Assembly (NCBI GenBank): GCA_003142375.1
Contig: PLME01000020.1
Span: forward strand, 42,765-106,764
Length of the DNA: 64,000 nucleotides
Origin: Dehalococcoidia bacterium
Lineage (GTDB): Bacteria; Chloroflexota; Dehalococcoidia; GIF9; UBA5629
Direction: 5' to 3'
Part shown: one piece after another, positions 4,106 to 46,599 of the stretch
Layout: each line of letters begins with the position of its first letter
How positions within the stretch are numbered: the stretch's first letter is position 1
The notes under the pieces: generated by a model
What the model was told of the DNA's origin: nothing
The model's input: only the letters and a program-made list of their open reading frames with translations
Database searches by the model: none
Position numbers and translations under genes: made by a program

Positions 4106-5347
4106 TTGGAAGATAGATTAAATATAGCCATACTAAGTTTGCACACCTGCCCTTTCGACAGGCCGGGAAGCCGCTATACGGGCGGCATGAATATCTACAT
4201 ACAAAACCTTGCTCAGGAGCTAGGCAGACGGGGACATTCTATTGATATATATACGTGTTCCCATGTCGATGCCGATTTTTGCACTTTGGTCGACGGGAGT
4301 GAGAACATACGCTTAGTTCATATACAATCCCCGGACTACAGCTCGATTTCGGAGAAATCACTTGGTGATCATGTTAGCGGGTTGACCGATTCCATCGCCT
4401 CTTATTGCCTTGAGCACAATAAACATTATGATTTGATCCACAGCCACTACTGGCTGTCCGGCGTTGTCGGGAGCAAATTAAAGCAGCGATGGTGCATACC
4501 TCACATTACCATGTTTCATACCCTTGGCGCTGTAAAAAATAACCTGGGGCTGGGAATGCTGGAGCCGGACTACAGGATCTTAAATGAAGAGGTAGTTATC
4601 AGGGCCAGCGACCTCATAATCGCCTCTACCCAAAGAGAGAAACACGAGTTGATCAATAGATATGCGGCCGATCCAACCGCAATTGAAGTGGTCCCCTGCG
4701 GCATCAATCCTGCGATATTTCGCCCCATCGATAAGCAGCAAGCCCGGCAAATGTGCGGATTGCCCACTAAAAAAACGGCACTGTTCGTGGGTCGGCTGGA
4801 CCCGCTTAAAGCGCTGGGTAATTTGCTGGAGGCGATCTCCTGCCTGAAATCGCGTGATGATTTCCAACTGGTAGTGGTAGGCGGCAACGATCACGGTGTT
4901 GACTTTAAGGCCATCATGGATGCCGCCTGCGATTACGATGTAAGTCACCGAGTCAATTTTATAGGCTCGGTCCCACATGAACGCATGTATTTATACTATA
5001 ACGCGGCTGATTTCTGTGTAATACCATCGTATTACGAAAGCTTCGGCTTGGTAGCCCTTGAATCGCTGGCCTGCGGCACCCCCATAATAGCCACCGATGT
5101 AGGTGAAGTCCGTGATATAGCGGGGATATGTCAATCCTGCAAGATAATCACCGGGAATACACCACTGGAATTGTCAACAAGTATCAATGCCATGTTGGAC
5201 AATATCGGCAACAGGAAAAATGGATACAACAAAATGGTCGAACTTTACGGCTGGAGCCACGTGGTGGACAGAATAATTCAACACTACAGGGCGATTATCG
5301 ATAGAAACGCAGAGTATACACAGCAGCTTTGTTCGTATAAATCTTGA
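4106..5347 (+). CDS. GT4 retaining glycosyltransferase, MshA-like
   Basis: The N-terminal ILSLHTCPFDRPGSRYTGGMNIY..RRGHSIDIYT and HSHYWLSG closely match the MshA (D-inositol-3-phosphate glycosyltransferase) family signature. The C-terminal YESFGLVALESLACGTPIIA is the GT-B EX7E region. Confidence 0.8.
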   Translation: MEDRLNIAILSLHTCPFDRPGSRYTGGMNIYIQNLAQELGRRGHSIDIYTCSHVDADFCTLVDGSENIRLVHIQSPDYSSISEKSLGDHVSGLTDSIASYCLEHNKHYDLIHSHYWLSGVVGSKLKQRWCIPHITMFHTLGAVKNNLGLGMLEPDYRILNEEVVIRASDLIIASTQREKHELINRYAADPTAIEVVPCGINPAIFRPIDKQQARQMCGLPTKKTALFVGRLDPLKALGNLLEAISCLKSRDDFQLVVVGGNDHGVDFKAIMDAACDYDVSHRVNFIGSVPHERMYLYYNAADFCVIPSYYESFGLVALESLACGTPIIATDVGEVRDIAGICQSCKIITGNTPLELSTSINAMLDNIGNRKNGYNKMVELYGWSHVVDRIIQHYRAIIDRNAEYTQQLCSYKS

Positions 5348-34099: not shown

Positions 34100-34870
34100 T
34101 CAATCCGAGGTCGCTAATTTAGTAAGTATTTTTTCTCTGACCGATTGCGGCAGTGCTTTGCCAACCATCGTTATATTCCTCAACAAGGGAGGAAACAGGT
34201 ATTCCCTGATCTCGTTTTTCAGACCTTTTAAGATGTGTCCGGCGGCCTCGTCCATAGTCATAGTAAGCGATCTGGGGATGCCGCGCTGCTTGTTCCTCTC
34301 GGTAACTACGAAGCCGGGACACAGCGTCAGCACCCTTATGTTATACGGCTTCAGCTCGATCCTGGCCGTATCCAGAAAAATGCGGCAGGCGGCCTTGGCA
34401 GCCGAATATTGTCCCTGCGTGGGCATGCCCTGGAAGCCCGCCAGCGAGTTGGTATTGGCTATAATTCCACCATCGGCCTGTGTCCGCATCTGGCGTACCA
34501 GCGGGCAGAAGAAATTGATCATGGAATCGTAGTTTATGCGCATGTTTTGCTTGATATCCAGCGGCATAGCATTGGCAGTGTTGAGGGAAGGCCCGGCACC
34601 GATATTAAGCAGGGCGATATCTATGCGGCCGAAGCGGTCGACCGCCTGCTGGACTACGCCGGCCGCCTGCTCCTCATCCAGTGCATCCCCGGCGATGGAC
34701 AGCGCCTCACTGCCGTTCTTCTGAATATTATCTGCTACATCCGCCAAAAGCTCTTTGCGGCGGGCGGTTATTACGATTCTGTTATGCTTGTGGCTGAGGG
34801 CCAGTGCCACCGCTTTGCCGATTCCCGATGAAGACCCGGTGATCAAGATTACTTTATCTTTCAACTCCAT
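34100..34870 (-). CDS. SDR family oxidoreductase
   Basis: Has TGSSSGIG (TGxxxGIG), NIGAG and YSAAKAA (YxxxK). Confidence 0.9.
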   Translation of the reverse strand: MELKDKVILITGSSSGIGKAVALALSHKHNRIVITARRKELLADVADNIQKNGSEALSIAGDALDEEQAAGVVQQAVDRFGRIDIALLNIGAGPSLNTANAMPLDIKQNMRINYDSMINFFCPLVRQMRTQADGGIIANTNSLAGFQGMPTQGQYSAAKAACRIFLDTARIELKPYNIRVLTLCPGFVVTERNKQRGIPRSLTMTMDEAAGHILKGLKNEIREYLFPPLLRNITMVGKALPQSVREKILTKLATSD

Positions 34871-34903
34871 GACGACCCCTCCTTAGTAGGACTTTATTAA
34901 CAC

Positions 34904-35012
34904 TGTCATTGCGAGGAGTCCCGATGATATCGGGACGACGTGGCAATCTCATTGGACAATATCTAGCAACTGCCTTCGTACAAAGGATTGCTTCGCTTCG
35001 CTCGCAATGACG
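34904..35012. repeat. Nested inverted-repeat element (two inverted copies of a GTCATTGCGAG...GCAATC unit)
   Basis: gtcattgcgag (34905-15) pairs with ctcgcaatgac (35001-11). gcaatc (34943-48) pairs with gattgc (34987-92). An internal hairpin gtcccgat-gat-atcgggac lies at 34918-36. The element sits in an intergenic region between divergent genes. Confidence 0.6.
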
Positions 35013-35145
35013 TATTCAATAAAGCTATATTTGCAGTCCATTATACTATTAATCATTAGCAGAGCTTGTAGGCCAAAGCCTGTTATAATAAATGCGGTTC
35101 CCGCCGCAAAATTCACTACTATCTTTGCTTAACGGAGGCTAAACT

Positions 35146-36198
35146 ATGAAAGTCCTGGCTTTGAATTCCAGCCCAAGGGTGAAAGGGCAGAGCAAGACCG
35201 AGCTGATGCTCTCCCACCTGGTCAAAGGCATGAAAGAGGCGGGGGCCGACGTAGAGACGGTCGACCTGCGCACGAAGAAGATCAATTACTGCAAGGGTTG
35301 CTATACCTGCTGGACCAAGACACCCGGCGTATGCGTGCATAAAGACGATATGGCGCTGGAGCTTTACCCCAAATGGTTGGAATCGGACATTGTGATATAT
35401 GCCTCTCCGCTTTACTATTACACCTTGAACGCCGAGATGAAGGCCTTCATCGAGCGCACCCTGCCCATACTTATACCTTATTTAAAGCGCGGCAAAGACA
35501 GGACAGGCCACCCGCTGCGCAGTAAATTCCCCCAATCCGTGGTGGTGTCGGTAGCCGGCTTCCCCGACGATTCGGTCTTCGATGCGCTCAGGTTCTGGAG
35601 CAAAACCGTCTTCGGCCATGGGGGAGGCCTGCTTGCCGAGATCTACCGTCCGGCCGCCGAATCCATGGTCTATTCCGGCAAAAGGGATATCATCCTCGAA
35701 GCCGTTGAGCAGGCCGGGAAGGAGCTGATTCAGCATAAGAAGGTTTCTCCCGCCACTATGGCGGTTATCACACAGCCTATTGCCGAGCCGGACGTGATTG
35801 CCGATATCGCCAATATCGCCTGGCAGCCCATGATAGACGGCGGCATGACCCCTGCCGAGATGGAGAAGAAAGGCGGGTTGGCGTACAGGCCGGACTCGCA
35901 CCAGACCCTGTTAGCCATGATGGCCTTCGCCTTCAACCCGCGCAAGGCCGCCGGCAAGAAAGGGGTACTGCAGTTTAAATTCACGGGCAAGCAGGCAGGC
36001 GACTGCTATCTCACTATCAACGATGGACTTTGCACCCGTCATCTTGGCCTTGCCGAAAAGGCCGACTGCACGGTGGAAGGCCCTTTCGAAGTATGGGCCG
36101 ATATCGTCCAGGGCAAGGCTGACGGCGGCAAGATGGCCATGGAGAGCAAGTACAAAGCCCAGGGCGATATCTCACTGCTGATGGTCTTCGGACAGTAG
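35146..36198 (+). CDS. Flavodoxin-fold NAD(P)H-dependent FMN reductase / iron-sulfur flavoprotein domain fused to an SCP2 sterol-carrier-like domain
   Basis: The N-terminal MKVLALNSSPR...CKGCYTCW pattern matches the Isf/NADPH-FMN reductase family. The C-terminal LQFKFTG....CYLTI.....ADC.V......W..I..G..DG..A......K..GD is SCP2-like. Confidence 0.7.
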   Translation: MKVLALNSSPRVKGQSKTELMLSHLVKGMKEAGADVETVDLRTKKINYCKGCYTCWTKTPGVCVHKDDMALELYPKWLESDIVIYASPLYYYTLNAEMKAFIERTLPILIPYLKRGKDRTGHPLRSKFPQSVVVSVAGFPDDSVFDALRFWSKTVFGHGGGLLAEIYRPAAESMVYSGKRDIILEAVEQAGKELIQHKKVSPATMAVITQPIAEPDVIADIANIAWQPMIDGGMTPAEMEKKGGLAYRPDSHQTLLAMMAFAFNPRKAAGKKGVLQFKFTGKQAGDCYLTINDGLCTRHLGLAEKADCTVEGPFEVWADIVQGKADGGKMAMESKYKAQGDISLLMVFGQ

Positions 36199-36237
36199 TT
36201 ACCCGGTTGCTGATCGTTTTTGTGAGGTAATAAGAGG

Positions 36238-36615
36238 ATGGAGAAAAAGACACACGAGGTGCAATTCCTATCCAGGAAAGGCCCTTACTCGCATGCAGTT
36301 GAGGCCGGCAGCCTGATTTTCCTTTCCGGCATAGTGCCGGTGGATATAGAGAAAAACATTCAGATCACGGACGATATCAGCTGGGCGACCGAGCTCTGTC
36401 TTAACAATATCAAGCGGCTGCTCGAACATATCGGCAGCGACATGAGCAAGGTGGTCAAGGTCACAGTCTACTTGAAAGACATGGCCTCCTTCGAAGACAT
36501 GAATAAGGTCTACAAGACCTTCTTCCCGCACAGTCCTCCCGCCCGCACCTGCGTGGCCGTCAAAGACCTGCCGGGCGGCTTCCCTATTGAGATAGAAGTG
36601 GTGGCGTTGAAATGA
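36238..36615 (+). CDS. ridA: RidA/YjgF family reactive-intermediate deaminase
   Basis: 125 aa with PYSHAV..G.LIFLSG, PAR.CV.V..LP....IEIE. Confidence 0.85.
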   Translation: MEKKTHEVQFLSRKGPYSHAVEAGSLIFLSGIVPVDIEKNIQITDDISWATELCLNNIKRLLEHIGSDMSKVVKVTVYLKDMASFEDMNKVYKTFFPHSPPARTCVAVKDLPGGFPIEIEVVALK

Positions 36616-37043
36616 ACCAGGCCTTGCATAAATTCAAAATCAGCTCCGTTGACCAGGTCAGCTACGCCGTCAAAGACATCGATAGCGCCATGGAAAAATG
36701 GTCGGAGCTTTACGGCATCGGGCCGTGGACCCTGCGTGAGAACGGCGGGACGGATGCCAAAGGACGGCCCTGGAAGATCAGGATGGCCTTTGCATACGTC
36801 GGGCCGCTGGAGATCGAGCTTGTGCAGTGCCTGGAGGGCCGCATATTCCAGTCACGCTTCCTGGACACCTGGGGCGAGGGCCTGCACCATATCGGCTTCA
36901 AGGTGGATGACGTGGACGCGGAGGTCAGGAACCTCACGTCTCAGGGAGCAAGGCTCATTATCCATGATCCGGGCCGCTTCGCCTACCTCGATGGGGGCGG
37001 GGCCGGCGGCGCCATCTTCGAATTGATTCAGAAAGCTCATTAG
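36612..37043 (+). CDS. VOC (glyoxalase/bleomycin resistance/dioxygenase) family protein
   Basis: Has the beta-alpha-beta-beta-beta module pattern (VDQVSYAV.D...........G.GLHHIGFKVDD) and is translationally coupled to ridA. Confidence 0.75.
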   Translation: MNQALHKFKISSVDQVSYAVKDIDSAMEKWSELYGIGPWTLRENGGTDAKGRPWKIRMAFAYVGPLEIELVQCLEGRIFQSRFLDTWGEGLHHIGFKVDDVDAEVRNLTSQGARLIIHDPGRFAYLDGGGAGGAIFELIQKAH

Positions 37044-37085
37044 CCGAGGCCTGGAATTGGCGCAGCATAAAGTTGGTGGACCCGT

Positions 37086-38630
37086 TTAACGGAAGACGGG
37101 TGGCAGAAGCTGCAGATAGTCCTTGCCGGTTACAGAGCCGGCGCACATAAACCCTGAGTGAACGGCGGCTTCGATGCCTCCCTCGTTAATCCGCTTGCCG
37201 TATGTATCTCCGGCAAAATATATTCCGTCCACAGTGGGGCATTTCACGTCTACCCATTCATCCTCCGGGGGCCGCCATAGTATGCAGGTATCCCCGACGG
37301 TAAACAGCTTGAAATCCAGGGCTTTTCTCCATCCCTGGAAGGCAGTGTCCGCAAACTTCAACATCCTGTCTATGACTATATCCACTTTCTTCTTATCATG
37401 CGCTTCATCAGCCAGGATACTGCTGGCCATGCCGAGAAGATGCTTGCCTTCAGGGGCACTTGTGGGCGCAATGGTCGACATGGAGACTACGTCCAGCGGG
37501 ACATTGCCCCTGAACAGCCCCTCGCTCTCAGGTATCAGCATGGACGTATGGTAGAAGGACCTGGGGTCCACTTCGAGTGCGCAGAAATCGCTGATGGGCC
37601 TGGTCATGCCGAACTGGGCGGCGACCATAGAAGTATGTATTATCCTTTTGGTCAACCTGACAAATTCAACCGGCAGCACGCTCTCCGGCAGTAGTTTCAG
37701 CAGCGCCCTGGGCGGTGCAGTGCAGACAACCACCGGAGCTTTTATTTCCACGGTTTTACCGTCTATTTCAGCTATAACGCCGGCCGCTTTTCCGTTGCGT
37801 ACGATAACCTCCTTAACCGCGGCATCCGTGATTATATCGCCGCCACGGTCCTTGACCACAGAGGCAAACCCTTCCGTGATAAAACGATGCCCGGGCGCTC
37901 CGGCGAAACCCCAGGAACCATTGGTTATATGCACACCGGTTTCCTGGACCTGCAAAAACACCTTCAAGTTCTCTCCGGCTGAGTTCAAGGCCGGGTCGTT
38001 GATTATGGTCTGGAAAGTCCCGATAGCGTAATGGAATTCCTGTGCCAACTCATTTCCGGTTATGCGCTCCACCCAATCTTTGAGGGTCACATGGTCCAAT
38101 TTCTCGGCTTCGGCTATGGTGCGCACCTGGAGCTTGCCTTTATGCACCTTGACCATCTCAGCGAAATCTTCATCGCTCATCCAACCGTACTTGCCTTTCC
38201 TGCTTATTATGTAGGGCTTCCAGTCATGGTCATACCAGACGAAGCCCACACTGGGGTAGAAAATAGAAGCCTTATTAAATAGCGCCAGGGCTTGACTCAC
38301 ACGTCCCCGGTTGGTAAACCATGCGCCCCTGCCGCCGGCTTCTAAAACATAGCCGTCAAGCATCTTTTTCTTTATAAGCACGGGAAGAGCGGGCTCTGTC
38401 CTGTCGCTTACCCAGGAGTGAGCGCACAGCGCCAGCGCTCTGCGGAACTGGTCGGCATTTTTGATGCCTTCCCCGCGGAATGACGTGGCGCGGCCCCCGA
38501 TCTGGGGCGCAGCCTCCAGGACAAGGACTTTCTTGCGTTCCATACCGGATAGTATGGCCCCGACAACCGAGCCAGCTATCCCGCAGCCAACTATTATGAC
38601 ATCATAGCTATCTGAGATTTTGACGGACAT
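37086..38630 (-). CDS. FAD-dependent oxidoreductase (phytoene-desaturase/amine-oxidase-like)
   Basis: Has the N-terminal dinucleotide fold YDVIIVGCGIAGSVVG...VLVLEA...GGR and a C-terminal FAD motif (IYFAGDTY). Substrate is unknown. Confidence 0.75.
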   Translation of the reverse strand: MSVKISDSYDVIIVGCGIAGSVVGAILSGMERKKVLVLEAAPQIGGRATSFRGEGIKNADQFRRALALCAHSWVSDRTEPALPVLIKKKMLDGYVLEAGGRGAWFTNRGRVSQALALFNKASIFYPSVGFVWYDHDWKPYIISRKGKYGWMSDEDFAEMVKVHKGKLQVRTIAEAEKLDHVTLKDWVERITGNELAQEFHYAIGTFQTIINDPALNSAGENLKVFLQVQETGVHITNGSWGFAGAPGHRFITEGFASVVKDRGGDIITDAAVKEVIVRNGKAAGVIAEIDGKTVEIKAPVVVCTAPPRALLKLLPESVLPVEFVRLTKRIIHTSMVAAQFGMTRPISDFCALEVDPRSFYHTSMLIPESEGLFRGNVPLDVVSMSTIAPTSAPEGKHLLGMASSILADEAHDKKKVDIVIDRMLKFADTAFQGWRKALDFKLFTVGDTCILWRPPEDEWVDVKCPTVDGIYFAGDTYGKRINEGGIEAAVHSGFMCAGSVTGKDYLQLLPPVFR

Positions 38631-38772: not shown

Positions 38773-39744
38773 CTAAATACCCATTAAAGGGCAGGCCAGC
38801 TCGTTTTTGTCTCCCGATTTCAACCCTCGCGCCCATTTAAACAGCTTCTCACGGTCTAAGCGCAGTGACCCGTCGGCTTTGACCCTGCCAACCTGATTTT
38901 CCGGGTGGTCCAGCTTTACTGTGCATTTGTTGAGCGACCCATCCGCCCGCACCGCAAAAGAATTCAGTCTGGTCGCATAGCATAGGGGAAGCAAATCAGC
39001 TGTAGTCATCGGCTCAATACCAAGCTTCTTCGCTTGCCGCACCAGCTGTTCTAAAAGCGGGGCGCTGTGCTCATCATCGAGCACCGGCAGCTCGGAGTCA
39101 CGAGGACACCCCAGCCGCGACAATGGCCGTATAAACAATTTGAAACGCTTGTCCGTCGCAAACGTATCAGCATATAGATTGATGAGCTCTGCCAGGCTTG
39201 CGCAGTTATCTGTTGCCAGATGGATGCGGACCACCACGGTGAATTGATCCTTAATTCTCTTGAAGCTTTTAAGATTATTCCATATCTGTGTAAAAGTGCC
39301 GCCACCTCCGGCCAAAACCCGCTTCACATCGTGGGCCTGCCCTACGCCATCCAGCGAAATCTGAAAACGGCGCACTTCCAGGTCGATCAGCTCTTGAAAA
39401 ACCGACGGCTTAAGCAGAAAACCATTAGTGGTCATATCGGCAAAGTAGACCAGATTATCACGTCGCTCAGCCAAAATCATTGCCTGACGCGAGATTTTCC
39501 TTATCACATTCAGCGCCAGGAGGGGTTCCCCACCGAACCAGGAAATCCCAAGTTGGCTGAGGGTACTGGAACGTTGGCGTAGAAACCTATTAACGGATTC
39601 GACTACGCCGGGCGCCATGGTTCCTCCCCGGGCAGTCTCATAGCAATAAATACAGCGGAAGTTGCAGGCTTCGGTGGGAAATATGATTAACTGTAAATAG
39701 TCATCGGCTATTGCGCCGATAATATCGTCACCGGATACTTTCAT
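38773..39744 (-). CDS. Radical SAM enzyme (peptide-maturase-like, Twitch/partial-SPASM C-terminus)
   Basis: Has the CNFRCIYC (CxxxCxxC) cluster, GGEPLL, and a C-terminal DGSLNKC with only a few further Cys. The ATG at 39744 lies 4 nt after the stop of the Cys-rich ORF; the track start at 39777 is GTG. Confidence 0.8.
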   Translation of the reverse strand: MKVSGDDIIGAIADDYLQLIIFPTEACNFRCIYCYETARGGTMAPGVVESVNRFLRQRSSTLSQLGISWFGGEPLLALNVIRKISRQAMILAERRDNLVYFADMTTNGFLLKPSVFQELIDLEVRRFQISLDGVGQAHDVKRVLAGGGGTFTQIWNNLKSFKRIKDQFTVVVRIHLATDNCASLAELINLYADTFATDKRFKLFIRPLSRLGCPRDSELPVLDDEHSAPLLEQLVRQAKKLGIEPMTTADLLPLCYATRLNSFAVRADGSLNKCTVKLDHPENQVGRVKADGSLRLDREKLFKWARGLKSGDKNELACPLMGI

Positions 39745-39748
39745 CTTT

Positions 39749-40054
39749 TCAGACGCAATTGCACATGCTATTCCCACCGCAACCGCACCCTGCGAGGCAG
39801 GTGCACATACTATCCGCAGGTAAAGGCATCGGTGGTTTCGGTGCAGGGCCTGGTTTCGGTGCAGGGCCTGGTTTCGGAGACGGCTTGGGGAGGGATTTGG
39901 TGAACCTCGAACGGCGCGACTTTAGCCGGCTAACGGTTCCTGCTAATTTTTTGTCCCCTATTTTGATCCTGCCCAGATCGTCAACCTCAACCCTGTCCAT
40001 AGCAATCTGAATTATGCTGCCGCCTTTGTTTTTAGCCTGCCCGCTTTTTTCCAT
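39749..40054 (-). CDS. 101-aa Cys-rich precursor-like protein (candidate RiPP precursor)
   Basis: GGAGG lies 7 nt upstream of the ATG at 40054. The C-terminal tail MCTCLAGCGCGGNSMCNCV has 6 Cys in 18 aa and follows the Pro-rich linker KPSPKPGPAPKPGPAPKPPMPLP. The ORF is translationally coupled to the radical SAM gene. Confidence 0.65.
   Translation of the reverse strand: MEKSGQAKNKGGSIIQIAMDRVEVDDLGRIKIGDKKLAGTVSRLKSRRSRFTKSLPKPSPKPGPAPKPGPAPKPPMPLPADSMCTCLAGCGCGGNSMCNCV
39834..39877. repeat. 18-bp perfect tandem repeat (2.4 copies) inside the precursor-like ORF, encoding PKPGPA units
   Basis: ggtttcggtgcagggcct occurs twice, followed by a partial copy ggtttcgg. The repeat is in frame. Confidence 0.9.
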
Positions 40055-40094
40055 CACTGTACCTCCTCAATAACAACCCCGTTACCCTAAAGCA

Positions 40095-40123
40095 AAATTA
40101 CCATTATTGAAGATTTATGTCAA
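40095..40123 (-). promoter_or_regulatory. Putative sigma70-type promoter for the precursor/radical SAM operon (TTGACA-17-TAATTT)
   Basis: The minus strand reads TTGACAtaaatcttcaataatggTAATTT, about 40 nt upstream of the ATG at 40054. Confidence 0.45.
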
Positions 40124-40315
40124 ACCATTTTCAGCTTGAACCGGATTAATGGCGGGCGGACGATGATATAGAGCGACGGTCAAATACGCTTGACAAAAAG
40201 GTGTATAATTTAACCAACGCATAAACGATATACACAATAGAAAAATAAAAGACGGGTGGGGGCAAAGAAATAGCGTCCGTAAAGAGGTCACTTGGACGCC
40301 GTGGAGCGAGTAGTG

Positions 40316-40345
40316 AAACCGACCACTTAAGTGGTCGGTTTTTAT
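40316..40345 (+). terminator. Orphan plus-strand intrinsic terminator in the divergent intergenic region
   Basis: aaaccgaccac-ttaa-gtggtcggttt is followed by ttttatttta. There is no plus-strand ORF upstream of it. Confidence 0.6.
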
Positions 40346-40493: not shown

Positions 40494-40844
40494 ATGCCTA
40501 TAACTCTTGAACACGTCAAGGAGGCCACCAAACGAGCATTGGATGCCGGTACGTATAAACGCCTCAAAGGGCATGAGCACGTTGCGGTATTCATCAGGCC
40601 TGCTCCGCTCAAAGGCGGAACGGAGCTGCGAATTGGATACACAACGTACAAAGTGGAGAAGGATGCTTATCTTGTCTTCATTGATTTAAAGCATGATGCA
40701 AATTTTCAGCACCCCGTGCTCTACGAACTGCATAATCTTGAGGATGGCAGCATCCGAACCATCGAGGAGAAATACCCCATTGCAGATCAGGAGTTCGAGA
40801 GAAGCCTGATCCCCCACATCCTTCCGGGAAAGGAGGGTAAGTAA
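40494..40844 (+). CDS. Hypothetical 116-aa protein, first gene of the protease operon
   Basis: GGAAAGGAGGG lies upstream of the ATG, and the stop abuts the ATG of the next gene (40845). I recognise no family. Confidence 0.6.
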   Translation: MPITLEHVKEATKRALDAGTYKRLKGHEHVAVFIRPAPLKGGTELRIGYTTYKVEKDAYLVFIDLKHDANFQHPVLYELHNLEDGSIRTIEEKYPIADQEFERSLIPHILPGKEGK

Positions 40845-44754: not shown

Positions 44755-46599
44755 TCACGGCGATAAGTCCGTTTCCAGCGGACCGGGCATAGGCTCAGGT
44801 GTTGGGTTCGGCACCGGGCCGGGCATCGGTTCAGGTGTGGGATTGGGTACCGGTCCGGGCATCGGACCCGGTGTTGGGTTAGGTACAGGTCCCGGCATAG
44901 GCCCAGGGCCGGGCAGGCTTGTAAACATTATTGTGAAGGTTATATAACCGCCAGGGGAAAGCTCCTGTGACGAAGGCGACACTCCGGTGAATTCGGCGCT
45001 CCAGGGCCCGCCGTTCTGAAACTCCAAGCGATAGCTTCCCGCCGGAGCAGCGTCAAATGTACGGGATACCTCGTCCGCCGATTGCACATACGGCCCGTGC
45101 AGCACGTAGTTGGCTGATCCGTACCAGGACTTCCCGTCAAGCGTTGCATCCACAGTGACATATCCCCTGCTCTCGGCGGTGAAGTGCAGGGTATATACAA
45201 TCGAACCGCCCGCAGAAAGGTACTGTGTGGGCGAAGGCGAGATCCCCGTCAGCGTAGCGCCCACCGGCCCGCCCGAGTTATACACCAGGGTATAGGTCCC
45301 CTTGGGATAACCGGACAGCCAGCTCGGGATCGTATCCCCACTATCCATCAGGCTGCCGTTGGTCAGGGAATAACTTATAGGGCCTGAGCCCGGATTCGTC
45401 ACCCACTGCGTACCGTCCACCGTGGCATAGACGGTGATGTTGCCCTTGTCCTGCTGGCCGATAAAGTTCAAGTTGAATACGATGGTACGGCCGGGGGCCA
45501 ACGATTGCGTGGGCGACTGGGTGATGCTCGTCAGGACGGCATTGGAGGGCCCACCGCTGAGGTAAGTGACCGTATAGCTGCCCGTGGGCACACTGGAATA
45601 GGTACGCGGCACCGAGTAGTCCATGCTGAGGAAGGGGTTGCTGAGGGAGAAGTATGTGGCGCCCGACCAGGGAGAGCCATTCAAAGTAGCCTGGACTATA
45701 ATATTGCCGGCCTGCGACTGCCTGTAGTAGGTCAGCGTAAACTCCGCCGGCCTGCGGCCACCCACTACCAGAGTGGTATCCGGTATTATGCCTCCCAGCG
45801 AAGCACCCGCAGGCCCGCCGGATTTATAGGTGATCCTGTAGGTGCCGTCGGGGACGCTCCCTAGCTGCACCGGCACAGATGAATATGAGCCCGAAACCGG
45901 GCCGGAGATCGAATAGTTGACCGCGCCGGACCACGGAGCACCGTTGAAATAGGCCTTCACTGACAGGGTTGACGAGGTGGAAGACGAGAAGTTGAGCGTA
46001 TAGTTTATCTCTCCGTTGGCCGGCAGCGTTTGCAACGCCGAGGGTGAGATGCCGGTGAACACGGCATTCGCCGGCCCGAGAGCATTATATATAACAGTAT
46101 ATGAGCCGGGGTCAACGCCTATGAATGTATGCGGCACTATGGAATCCCTGTCCTGAAGGGGACCGTAGAGGGTATAGTCTATGCCGCCGGTCCAGGGGGC
46201 GCCGTCCAGCGTGGCGTCTACGTTTATCCTGGAGTCCCCGGGCGTCTGGAAGTTGAGCGTAAAGGAGATTGTGCCTCCTGCTGCAAGCTGCTGGGCCGGG
46301 GCCGGTGTGACATTGGCCAGGGTGGCCCCCGGCGGTCCGCCGTAGTTATAGGTGATGGAATATACGCCGGCTTTGACCCCGTTAAAGCTCCACGGCAGAT
46401 TATCTTCGGTATCCGAGAAGGGGCCGCTCACCTGGTAGTTGGCGCTGCCCGACCATTTTGCGCCGTCCAGCGTGGCGCTGACATAGATGTTGCCTGTGGT
46501 TGCCGGAGGCACAGGAGGGATGGGGGGGTTGGAGCACACCGCAAAAACAAGTACTAAGATTAAAGTAACTAATAGAACCCAGTATGCTCTCCTTTTCAT
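44755..46599 (-). CDS. Secreted/lipoprotein-like protein with six about 90-aa Ig-like tandem repeats and a Pro-rich repetitive C-terminal tail
   Basis: Has an N-terminal signal (LILVLVFAVCS). Six repeats have the form ATLDG.PWSG...Y.L.GP.......P..F..V..G.Y...Y..GGP..A....I.P...Q.L..GG.I.F.L.F. The tail is PGPMPGPVPNPT repeated three times. Confidence 0.7.
   Translation of the reverse strand: MKRRAYWVLLVTLILVLVFAVCSNPPIPPVPPATTGNIYVSATLDGAKWSGSANYQVSGPFSDTEDNLPWSFNGVKAGVYSITYNYGGPPGATLANVTPAPAQQLAAGGTISFTLNFQTPGDSRINVDATLDGAPWTGGIDYTLYGPLQDRDSIVPHTFIGVDPGSYTVIYNALGPANAVFTGISPSALQTLPANGEINYTLNFSSSTSSTLSVKAYFNGAPWSGAVNYSISGPVSGSYSSVPVQLGSVPDGTYRITYKSGGPAGASLGGIIPDTTLVVGGRRPAEFTLTYYRQSQAGNIIVQATLNGSPWSGATYFSLSNPFLSMDYSVPRTYSSVPTGSYTVTYLSGGPSNAVLTSITQSPTQSLAPGRTIVFNLNFIGQQDKGNITVYATVDGTQWVTNPGSGPISYSLTNGSLMDSGDTIPSWLSGYPKGTYTLVYNSGGPVGATLTGISPSPTQYLSAGGSIVYTLHFTAESRGYVTVDATLDGKSWYGSANYVLHGPYVQSADEVSRTFDAAPAGSYRLEFQNGGPWSAEFTGVSPSSQELSPGGYITFTIMFTSLPGPGPMPGPVPNPTPGPMPGPVPNPTPEPMPGPVPNPTPEPMPGPLETDLSP

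Follow-up and report, generated by a model that had tools for sequence, protein, structure and literature searches.

A gene for a radical S-adenosylmethionine (SAM) enzyme that directly follows a small gene with a Cys-rich 3' end raises the question of whether the two encode a maturase and its peptide substrate, and which chemistry would connect them. Such a pair lies on the minus strand of the window analysed here, a stretch of 64,000 nt from contig PLME01000020.1 of a Dehalococcoidia bacterium, in which a 101-aa open reading frame (ORF) precedes the gene of a 323-aa radical SAM protein. An initial annotation, made from the letters of the DNA, had put the two genes forward as a candidate module for a peptide that is ribosomally synthesised and post-translationally modified (RiPP). 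We found that the peptide and the enzyme are very probably a substrate and its maturase. The best explanation overall, which we favour modestly, is a RiPP-type two-gene cassette for leader-guided thioether cross-linking of Cys residues that proceeds independently of a RiPP recognition element (RRE).

Conservation of the precursor and radical SAM gene pair

The elements of the pair are as follows.
39749..40054 including the stop codon, minus strand: precursor-like ORF of 101 aa (ORF list and sequence; also a JGI gene call)
38773..39744, minus strand: short-form radical SAM gene of 323 aa, lacking an RRE and with a putative Twitch-like C-terminus (Pfam/NCBIfam, AlphaFold2 (AF2), Foldseek)
40095..40123, minus strand: promoter candidate TTGACA (40123..40118)-17 nt-TAATTT (40100..40095), of presumed function (reading of the sequence)
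40062..40066, minus strand: Shine-Dalgarno sequence GGAGG with a 7-nt spacer to the precursor ATG at 40054 (sequence)

The radical SAM protein has more than a thousand database relatives by sequence search. On the contigs of relatives with 90, 65, 64, 59, and 52% identity to it, an ORF of 95–112 aa is found each time immediately upstream and on the same strand. The 52%-identical enzyme comes from a Planctomycetota metagenome-assembled genome (MAG), in which the small gene is absent from the NCBI annotation yet present in the DNA. Altogether, the pairing is seen in seven lineages from two phyla, while all other neighbours change. A metagenome scan that used only the peptide motif MC[TA]C[VL]A[QG]C, and was thus independent of the enzyme, returned five loci, every one of which carried a radical SAM gene downstream. 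Moreover, the precursor stop codon TGA (39751..39749) is followed by AAAG and then by the radical SAM ATG at 39744, and this junction of a stop codon, 4 nt, and an ATG is kept in the 90%-identical relative (locus L001; such numbers denote the related loci). Within the window, just three of the 729 ORFs of at least 25 aa carry five or more Cys among their final 25 residues, and the 101-aa ORF is the only one of them that adjoins the window's sole CxxxCxxC protein.

A word-indexed protein search with the 101-aa ORF gave nothing, whereas 1.84 billion representative proteins, searched exhaustively without a profile, yielded true precursor homologues in three clusters only. The empty result is therefore a failure of sensitivity rather than a sign of absence, and the small number of clusters implies that the clade of the window is rare. 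The initial annotation had placed GGAGG 7 nt upstream of the small gene and its TGA 4 nt before the next ATG, and both were confirmed in the sequence. The ATG at 39744 is favoured over an alternative GTG start at 39777 from the ORF listing, which overlaps the precursor ORF, because the homologues start at the matching position in the alignment and identical JGI contigs carry gene calls of 101 aa and 323 aa. The radical SAM gene itself lacks a Shine-Dalgarno sequence, which makes translational coupling to the precursor gene probable. The promoter candidate is present where it had been proposed, with a TG two bases before its -10 hexamer (TG-n, extended -10 type). It sits in a 41-nt block of which 40 positions agree between the window and L001, two sequences that have diverged much more in the adjoining 5' untranslated region and coding start; we take this conservation as moderate evidence that the promoter candidate is real.

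The precursor divides into these regions.
39893..40003, minus strand: conserved leader region, residues 18–54 (seven-lineage alignment, leader hidden Markov model (HMM), AF2)
39959..39991, minus strand: leader motif VEVDDLGRIKI, ahead of a basic helix with LKSRR at its end
39818..39889, minus strand: variable Pro/Lys-rich linker, residues 56–79, predicted to be disordered (alignment)
39752..39817, minus strand: core ADSMCTCLAGCGCGGNSMCNCV, residues 80–101, with six invariant Cys and with D81-C84 and N95-C98 as (D/N)xxC (alignment)

The 101-aa ORF ends in MCTCLAGCGCGGNSMCNCV, with six Cys, as had been noted, spread over 19 residues instead of the 18 first counted. Ahead of this tail lie a charged N-terminal part, the segment VEVDDLGRIKIGDKKLAGTVSRLKSRR, and the Pro/Lys-rich stretch, an arrangement that the initial annotation had likewise described. 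Across the seven aligned lineages, D25, G28, R29, D34, A38, and K45 are invariant in the leader, and D81, M83, C84, C86, A88, C90, G91, C92, C98, N99, and C100 in the core. The linker differs in length and sequence among the relatives, being Pro-rich in the window and its nearest relatives; in the deeper-branching L003, L089, L090, and L096 it gives way to another stretch that contains Cys, in the motifs NSYC, DSFC, and NIGC. In an AF2 model, which was run on a four-row alignment (overall predicted local distance difference test (pLDDT) 56.5) and used for secondary structure only, the leader forms a beta-hairpin (residues 22–24 and 30–32) and a helix (35–54) at a pLDDT of ~70–74, and the linker and core are disordered. 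The precursor shows the generic traits of a RiPP precursor, with a conserved leader, a C-terminal core, and a gene beside the putative modifying enzyme.

Judged from nonsynonymous to synonymous substitution ratios (dN/dS) against L001 of ~0.15 in the leader and ~0.23 in the core, the 101-aa ORF is under purifying selection. The precursor gene is also far more diverged from L001 than the adjoining radical SAM gene, synonymous sites included (dS ~1.2 for the leader versus 0.25 for the enzyme, a comparison that rests on small site counts), for which recombination or a different mutational or selective regime are possibilities. Pfam and NCBIfam scans yielded only noise for the window precursor and for ten family precursors, and no metallothionein model in either collection matched a precursor. 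The leader motif presumably resembles the swapped-hairpin domain of SpoVT/AbrB (PF04014), but this model matched neither the window precursor (E ≤ 0.01) nor the ten family precursors (E ≤ 1).

The initial annotation had named sulfatases beside the enzyme's relatives, a lack of conserved homologues of the small ORF, and a non-conserved Cys tail as findings that would speak against it. Instead, the relatives of the radical SAM protein adjoin small Cys-containing peptides, the small ORF has conserved homologues that keep the radical SAM neighbour, and the six-Cys tail is invariant. All of its points that are testable in silico came out in favour, and its interpretation is supported, with the corrections that the enzyme lacks an RRE, that the module is one clade of a larger family, and that the accessory genes are excluded.

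The radical SAM enzyme and its short-form relatives

Two regions of the enzyme bear on cluster binding.
39643..39666, minus strand: CNFRCIYC, the CxxxCxxC cluster motif (C27, C31, C34), invariant in a 22-sequence alignment
38791..38982, minus strand: predicted auxiliary-cluster region C255-x13-G-x4-C274, followed by C318 (alignment)

The protein carries CNFRCIYC, GGEPLL, and DGSLNKC, just as first reported, and belongs to the radical SAM superfamily by its invariant cluster motif, its match to PF04055 (58.8 bits against a cut-off of 29.5), and an AF2 fold (pLDDT 90.5) like that of radical SAM structures; members of this superfamily bind a [4Fe-4S] cluster for SAM cleavage through CxxxCxxC and possess a partial TIM-barrel core. 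Pfam sees the radical SAM core only. Among NCBIfam models the best match was TIGR04463 with 150.8 bits against a cut-off of 525, aligned over model positions ~79–370 of 438, followed by Clo7bot (123.1 bits, cut-off 600), CefB (121.7, cut-off 600), and PapB (101.3, cut-off 340), with CcpM also among the nearest models; eight other family members gave the same pattern of sub-cut-off matches from ~79 to ~370 of 438. The nearest models are all maturases of Cys-rich peptides or thioether formers. The SCIFF maturase model (TIGR03974) gave 63.7 bits against a cut-off of 425, and sulfatase-maturase models reached 39–44 bits only. Structure comparison with Foldseek placed CteB (5why) first, with a query TM-score (TMq) of 0.70, and the anaerobic sulfatase-maturating enzyme (anSME) second (TMq 0.67); SkfB (TMq 0.60), BtrN, and EpeE (TMq 0.40–0.53) were further matches. 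CteB was also the nearest entry in a sequence search of the PDB, in which anSME was matched and SkfB aligned over the core only (E 3e-7), and the C-terminus searched alone found chance matches only.

A SPASM domain (TIGR04085/PF13186) comprises seven Cys in the pattern CX9-15GX4C...CX2CX5CX3C...C and holds two auxiliary clusters, a Twitch domain is a shortened SPASM with one auxiliary Fe-S cluster, and an RRE is a PqqD-like domain of ~80–100 aa located at the N-terminus or encoded as a discrete gene nearby. Given that the models align from ~79 to ~370 of 438, the RRE and the second SPASM half are missing. In keeping with this, only 26 residues precede CxxxCxxC, an RRE is found neither in the enzyme nor as a conserved extra gene beside the pair in this clade, the CX2CX5CX3C block is not in the protein, and the SPASM model of Pfam gave no match at E ≤ 0.01. 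The invariant Cys of the 22-sequence alignment are limited to the CxxxCxxC triad, C255 and C274 (CX13GX4C, the first SPASM half-motif), and C318. The C-terminus thus appears Twitch-like, with half a SPASM motif and three conserved Cys and with SkfB and BtrN among the fold matches, in agreement with the initial proposal of a Twitch or partial SPASM rather than a full one. The enzyme accordingly falls outside the SPASM-domain and the RRE-dependent maturases.

A scan of one genome per GTDB species revealed at least 588 related loci, the best 80 of which were retained for family analysis, and short and long forms were told apart by N-terminal length and Cys count. The long form (440–470 aa, mostly from Bacillaceae and Paenibacillus) keeps an RRE-like N-terminus and the full SPASM block. 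The short form comprises enzymes of ~315–370 aa, including that of the window, from Streptomyces, Kitasatospora, Planctomycetota, Eisenbacteria, Crocosphaera, Pseudoalteromonas, Nitrobacter, Xanthobacteraceae, Thermoplasmata, and Marsarchaeota. Small ORFs beside the radical SAM genes were scanned with a leader HMM built from regex-selected seeds, which at E < 0.05 detected the common motif hydrophobic-x-hydrophobic-D-x-x-G-R(-hydrophobic) in 37 of 89 loci. With L089/L090 added by hand, the motif is present in 38 of ~54 short-form loci and in none of ~35 long-form loci. Several other short-form loci encode small Cys-containing ORFs with more divergent leaders.

Some short-form loci contain two to four tandem precursor genes, some a C39-peptidase ABC exporter together with GG-type leaders, a few an extracytoplasmic function (ECF) sigma factor, and six a TPR-CHAT protein immediately upstream; tandem precursors, exporters for GG leaders, and such accessory genes are hallmarks of RiPP clusters. 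In the tandem loci of a Streptomyces sp. (L016, 2949..3739), a Xanthobacteraceae MAG (L042, 2815..3916), an uncultured proteobacterium MAG (L057, 3039..3937), and Nitrobacter (L075, 4941..5453), the leaders are near-identical and the Cys/Asn-rich cores varied; the radical SAM gene precedes the precursors in L075 and L069. In L009, L010, and L012–L015, from Eisenbacteria, Omnitrophota, and Planctomycetota MAGs, a TPR-CHAT protein of ~1000 aa precedes the Cys peptide and the short radical SAM gene (e.g., L010, 174..3530), NMMCPC and NAMCPC are examples of the motifs at the peptide ends, and the CHAT protein could be the leader protease of this clade. Besides, the leader motif occurs twice in some precursors (L023, 848..1120; L046, 3687..3974; L069, 3457..3801), for instance as GQVVIRSPKLATAL ... 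VEIDDAGRVVIKNAAAAKAI, so that the hairpin-helix unit appears to be duplicated there.

A further observation concerns the long form. In 28 Bacillaceae loci, a conserved Cys-free peptide of 28 aa, MRVLRPATSPVxxxxSGKIMKSVPGNLK, is encoded ~60–200 nt downstream of the enzyme gene (L024, 3653..5056 and 5115..5201; also L021, L025–L029, L033, L035–L039, L044, and others). This peptide matches no NCBIfam model, and together with the long-form enzyme it looks like a separate, unannotated radical SAM–peptide system. Antisense ORF 'families' within the radical SAM gene were rejected as artefacts of ORF calling.

Proposed chemistry and competing explanations

In the mechanism that we propose, one transcript from the TTGACA-17-TAATTT promoter would probably carry both precursor and enzyme. 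The leader hairpin (hydrophobic-x-hydrophobic-D-x-x-G-R) and the basic helix would serve as the recognition element, separated by the disordered Pro-rich spacer from a 22-residue core, and, as there is no RRE domain, the enzyme would have to bind the leader directly. The three C-terminal Cys would suffice to hold one auxiliary Fe-S cluster of the Twitch type and leave an iron site free, to which a core Cys thiolate may ligate. The 5'-deoxyadenosyl radical would then take a hydrogen from a neighbouring acceptor residue, and a thioether from Cys sulfur to carbon would close, with a loss of 2 Da for each link. In SkfB, three Cys ligate the Twitch cluster and one site stays open, and the auxiliary cluster of CteB binds a substrate Cys (PMC8326336, review); the three conserved Cys of the window enzyme would fit such an arrangement. 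NxxcB joins Cys23 to Asn20 at Cβ, and PapB and QhpD join Cys to Asp at Cβ (PMC9389541; PMC8326336). By analogy, we lean towards a thioether as the modification.

Since the spacing of the window cores matches that of the NxxcB substrate, the acceptors are predicted at position -3, the favoured ones being Asp81 and Asn95, three positions upstream of Cys84 and Cys98, which would give small NxxcB-like Cβ-thioether rings. This would leave the second Cys of every CxC pair for more cross-links, disulfides, or metal binding. An NxxC-type motif, with Asn (Asp tolerated) at -3 of the donor Cys, is present at the motif level only. In 40 non-redundant family cores, Asn stands at -3 of Cys in 39% of cases versus a background of 9.5%, and [ND]xxC was observed 55 times versus 15.7 ± 3.6 in shuffled cores (maximum 29 in 2000 shuffles), although these cores are related, so that the shuffle test overstates significance and is indicative only. 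Within the clade of the window, DSMC is invariant, and N/D is found at -3 of C98 in five of the seven lineages. We hold (N/D) at -3 as the acceptor to be a tentative assignment, short of probable.

Several observations weigh against this scheme, the relatedness of the cores among them. Position -3 of C98 is Leu, neither Asn nor Asp, in L089 and L090; the case for a thioether is made by analogy and from the statistics of the motif; and EpeE/YydG, an RRE-less Twitch-type RiPP radical SAM enzyme of different chemistry, is among the fold matches. The enzyme stays under the curated cut-off of every named maturase family, and the AF2 model of the precursor is of low confidence. No leader peptidase or exporter that could release a mature peptide is conserved in the clade of the window. 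A consensus promoter scan, moreover, left TTGACA-17-TAATTT unflagged because its -10 hexamer fits at just three of six positions.

That the two genes are neighbours by accident, with a small ORF that is either untranslated or encodes a Cys-rich protein free of modification and a radical SAM enzyme that acts on an unrelated small molecule or protein, might be read from the empty word-indexed search and from the missing gene call in the Planctomycetota MAG. We regard this as highly improbable in view of a pairing that persists in seven lineages and two phyla amid changing neighbours, the 4-nt spacing retained in the 90% relative, a dN/dS below 1, the homologues from the exhaustive search, and the JGI gene call. 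A substrate–enzyme pair of the same kind could also perform other chemistry, be it epimerisation (EpeE/YydG, PoyD), conversion of Cys to formylglycine or thioaldehyde (anSME), or C–C or C–O cross-linking, the Cys then serving metal binding or disulfides only. EpeE likewise has ~320 aa, no RRE, and a Twitch-type cluster and appears among the fold matches, anSME ranks second by structure and is matched by sequence, and no curated maturase model reaches its cut-off. Nevertheless, the enzymes that lead both the HMM and the fold comparison make thioethers in Cys-rich peptides, and the fold matches to EpeE are weak. The sulfatase-maturase scores are low with no adjacent sulfatases, and Cys, in the positional context (N/D)xxC, is common to nearly all family cores. 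We thus consider other chemistry quite unlikely.

The small protein may, alternatively, remain unprocessed, as a full-length cross-linked or metal-loaded intracellular protein (e.g., a metallothionein-like Cu/Zn binder or a redox buffer) or as a cofactor precursor, with the radical SAM enzyme as its maturase in the manner of QhpD on QhpC. Consistent with this are the lack of a conserved protease or transporter in the clade of the window, three CxC pairs that resemble metal-binding motifs, and the redox neighbours in the window and L001 (FAD oxidoreductase, flavodoxin-like protein, and short-chain dehydrogenase/reductase (SDR)), as well as the SCIFF cassettes, which are also two-gene units and whose broad distribution has been cited as an argument against an antibiotic function (PMC8326336). 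On the other hand, the layout is that of a RiPP precursor, with a conserved leader, a variable spacer, and a conserved C-terminal core, other clades of the family carry C39-ABC exporters with GG leaders and tandem precursors, the redox neighbours are not kept beyond the closest relative, and the precursor matches no metallothionein family. An unprocessed protein appears rather unlikely to us; it is compatible with the thioether mechanism and differs from the processed RiPP in product fate only.

Returning to the two-gene thioether cassette, the product may act inside the cell, as argued for SCIFF peptides, because no protease or exporter is conserved in the clade of the window. As a wider speculation, which we hold to be doubtful, the short-form enzymes and the DxxGR hairpin-helix leaders would make up an unrecognised RiPP class spanning many phyla of bacteria and archaea, in which the leader would be read directly, one auxiliary cluster would suffice, and several small (N/D)xxC thioether rings would be formed, the product of cassettes free of protease and exporter being an intracellular, metal- or redox-handling peptide rather than a secreted antibiotic.

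Flanking genes and relation to characterised systems

Downstream of the radical SAM gene, an FAD oxidoreductase gene follows after 142 nt, not the 143 nt of the initial annotation, whose remark that no obvious terminator intervenes agrees with our failure to find a terminator-like site in this gap. The oxidoreductase was rejected as a part of the module, since only the window and L001 have it close to the pair, and in L001 it stands upstream, beyond an oppositely oriented patatin gene. The gene order differs between the window (34100..38630) and L001 (2343..10136), the FAD oxidoreductase and a glyoxalase being downstream of the radical SAM gene in the former and upstream in the latter, and both share RidA, flavodoxin-like/SCP2, and SDR genes. 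The comparison of the two sequences indicates that a local rearrangement left the promoter–precursor–radical SAM unit intact.

On the opposite side, a divergent plus-strand operon starts at 40494 and encodes a 116-aa ORF, a C13-like protein of 639 aa, a 151-aa ORF, and a 500-aa protein, with two elements ahead of it.
40249..40333, plus strand: c-di-GMP-II riboswitch aptamer (RF01786), full model length, 49.8 bits and thus slightly short of the gathering score (53.5), E 2e-9
40315..40342, plus strand: intrinsic-terminator-like hairpin followed by a T-run, overlapping the riboswitch and upstream of the operon

The initial annotation had seen two Cys peptidases here and had speculated that they remove the leader. 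Of the two, the 639-aa protein has a borderline match to Peptidase_C13 (23.9 bits, cut-off 22.8), whereas the 500-aa protein matches no family, and they have only a non-catalytic region in common. As leader peptidases both were rejected, since no homologue occurs in any of the 90-odd related loci, and the riboswitch points to an operon that is regulated independently of the cassette. CHAT and C13 are both caspase-fold peptidases of clan CD, which we mention as a curiosity and not as evidence. Farther away (44755..46599, minus strand), a 614-aa protein, probably a surface protein, combines an N-terminal hydrophobic segment, six or seven module repeats of ~85 aa, and a C-terminal PGPMPGPVPNPTP repeat; Pro-rich spacers are thus found elsewhere in the genome too.

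In kind, a radical SAM enzyme that modifies a Cys-rich ribosomal peptide is already known. No Pfam or NCBIfam model covers the short-form family, and no description of a short RRE-less family was found in the full-text literature, which did not cover papers in subscription journals, so that a prior description is possible. The two large published catalogues of radical SAM RiPPs collected clusters by the RRE or the ABC transporter gene beside them (PMC10288494), and families whose cassettes have neither would therefore be systematically missed by them. The pair offers a minimal, portable two-gene system for leader recognition by a radical SAM enzyme without an RRE, in which the sufficiency of a single Twitch-type cluster for repeated thioether formation can be probed. 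The short enzyme and the leader motif together provide a sequence handle for mining hundreds more clusters, and some carriers are cultivable, namely strains of Streptomyces, Kitasatospora, Pseudoalteromonas, and Crocosphaera. The system also bears on the cellular role of transporter-less Cys-rich radical SAM peptides such as SCIFF.

Ranthipeptides carry radical SAM-dependent thioethers from Cys sulfur to a non-alpha carbon and sactipeptides to the alpha carbon, and the initial annotation had likened the architecture to these, in particular to SCIFF. The likeness holds as an analogy: SCIFF systems (CteA/CteB, Tte1186a/Tte1186; TIGR03973/TIGR03974) also pair a radical SAM enzyme with a small peptide whose six Cys lie close to its C-terminus, also lack a dedicated protease or exporter, and include with CteB the closest solved structure by both sequence and fold. 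It does not extend to membership, as the maturase model stays under its cut-off and the precursor has no match to a SCIFF model. CteB differs by its N-terminal RRE and by a complete SPASM domain that holds two auxiliary clusters, whereas the window enzyme lacks the RRE and the second SPASM half, and the SCIFF peptide has ~45 aa with an unrelated leader. The precursors of the window clade, at 101 aa here, are unusually long and possess a Pro-rich spacer, so that the initial remark on their length relative to SCIFF-type peptides was right.

The streptococcal NxxcA/NxxcB system shares the spacing seen in the cores, where Asn/Asp lies three residues before Cys, a likeness at the level of the substrate motif only. 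NxxC clusters belong to the quorum-sensing-linked streptococcal radical SAM RiPP (RaS-RiPP) network, and in the mechanism proposed for NxxcB the auxiliary cluster that binds the Cys lies in a SPASM domain (PMC13361665; PMC8326336). The alignments of TIGR04463, Clo7bot, CefB, and PapB to the window enzyme take in the radical SAM core as well as the first half of the SPASM motif, but all scores lie far under the cut-offs and place it in none of these families. The long-form relatives from Bacillaceae keep the RRE and the CX2CX5CX3C block, both of which the window enzyme lacks. SkfB, the sactisynthase of Bacillus subtilis, is a thioether-forming RiPP radical SAM enzyme with a Twitch in place of a SPASM domain, as proposed here, but it has an RRE and 412 aa, forms a single Cα-thioether, and shows low sequence similarity. 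EpeE/YydG is like the window pair in size (~320 aa), in lacking an RRE, in its Twitch-type cluster, and in the adjacent peptide gene, but it epimerises a substrate that is not Cys-rich and is absent from the top NCBIfam matches. Taken together, these comparisons suggest that the cassette departs from the characterised thioether systems in having no RRE, a predicted single-cluster C-terminus, and a leader family of its own.

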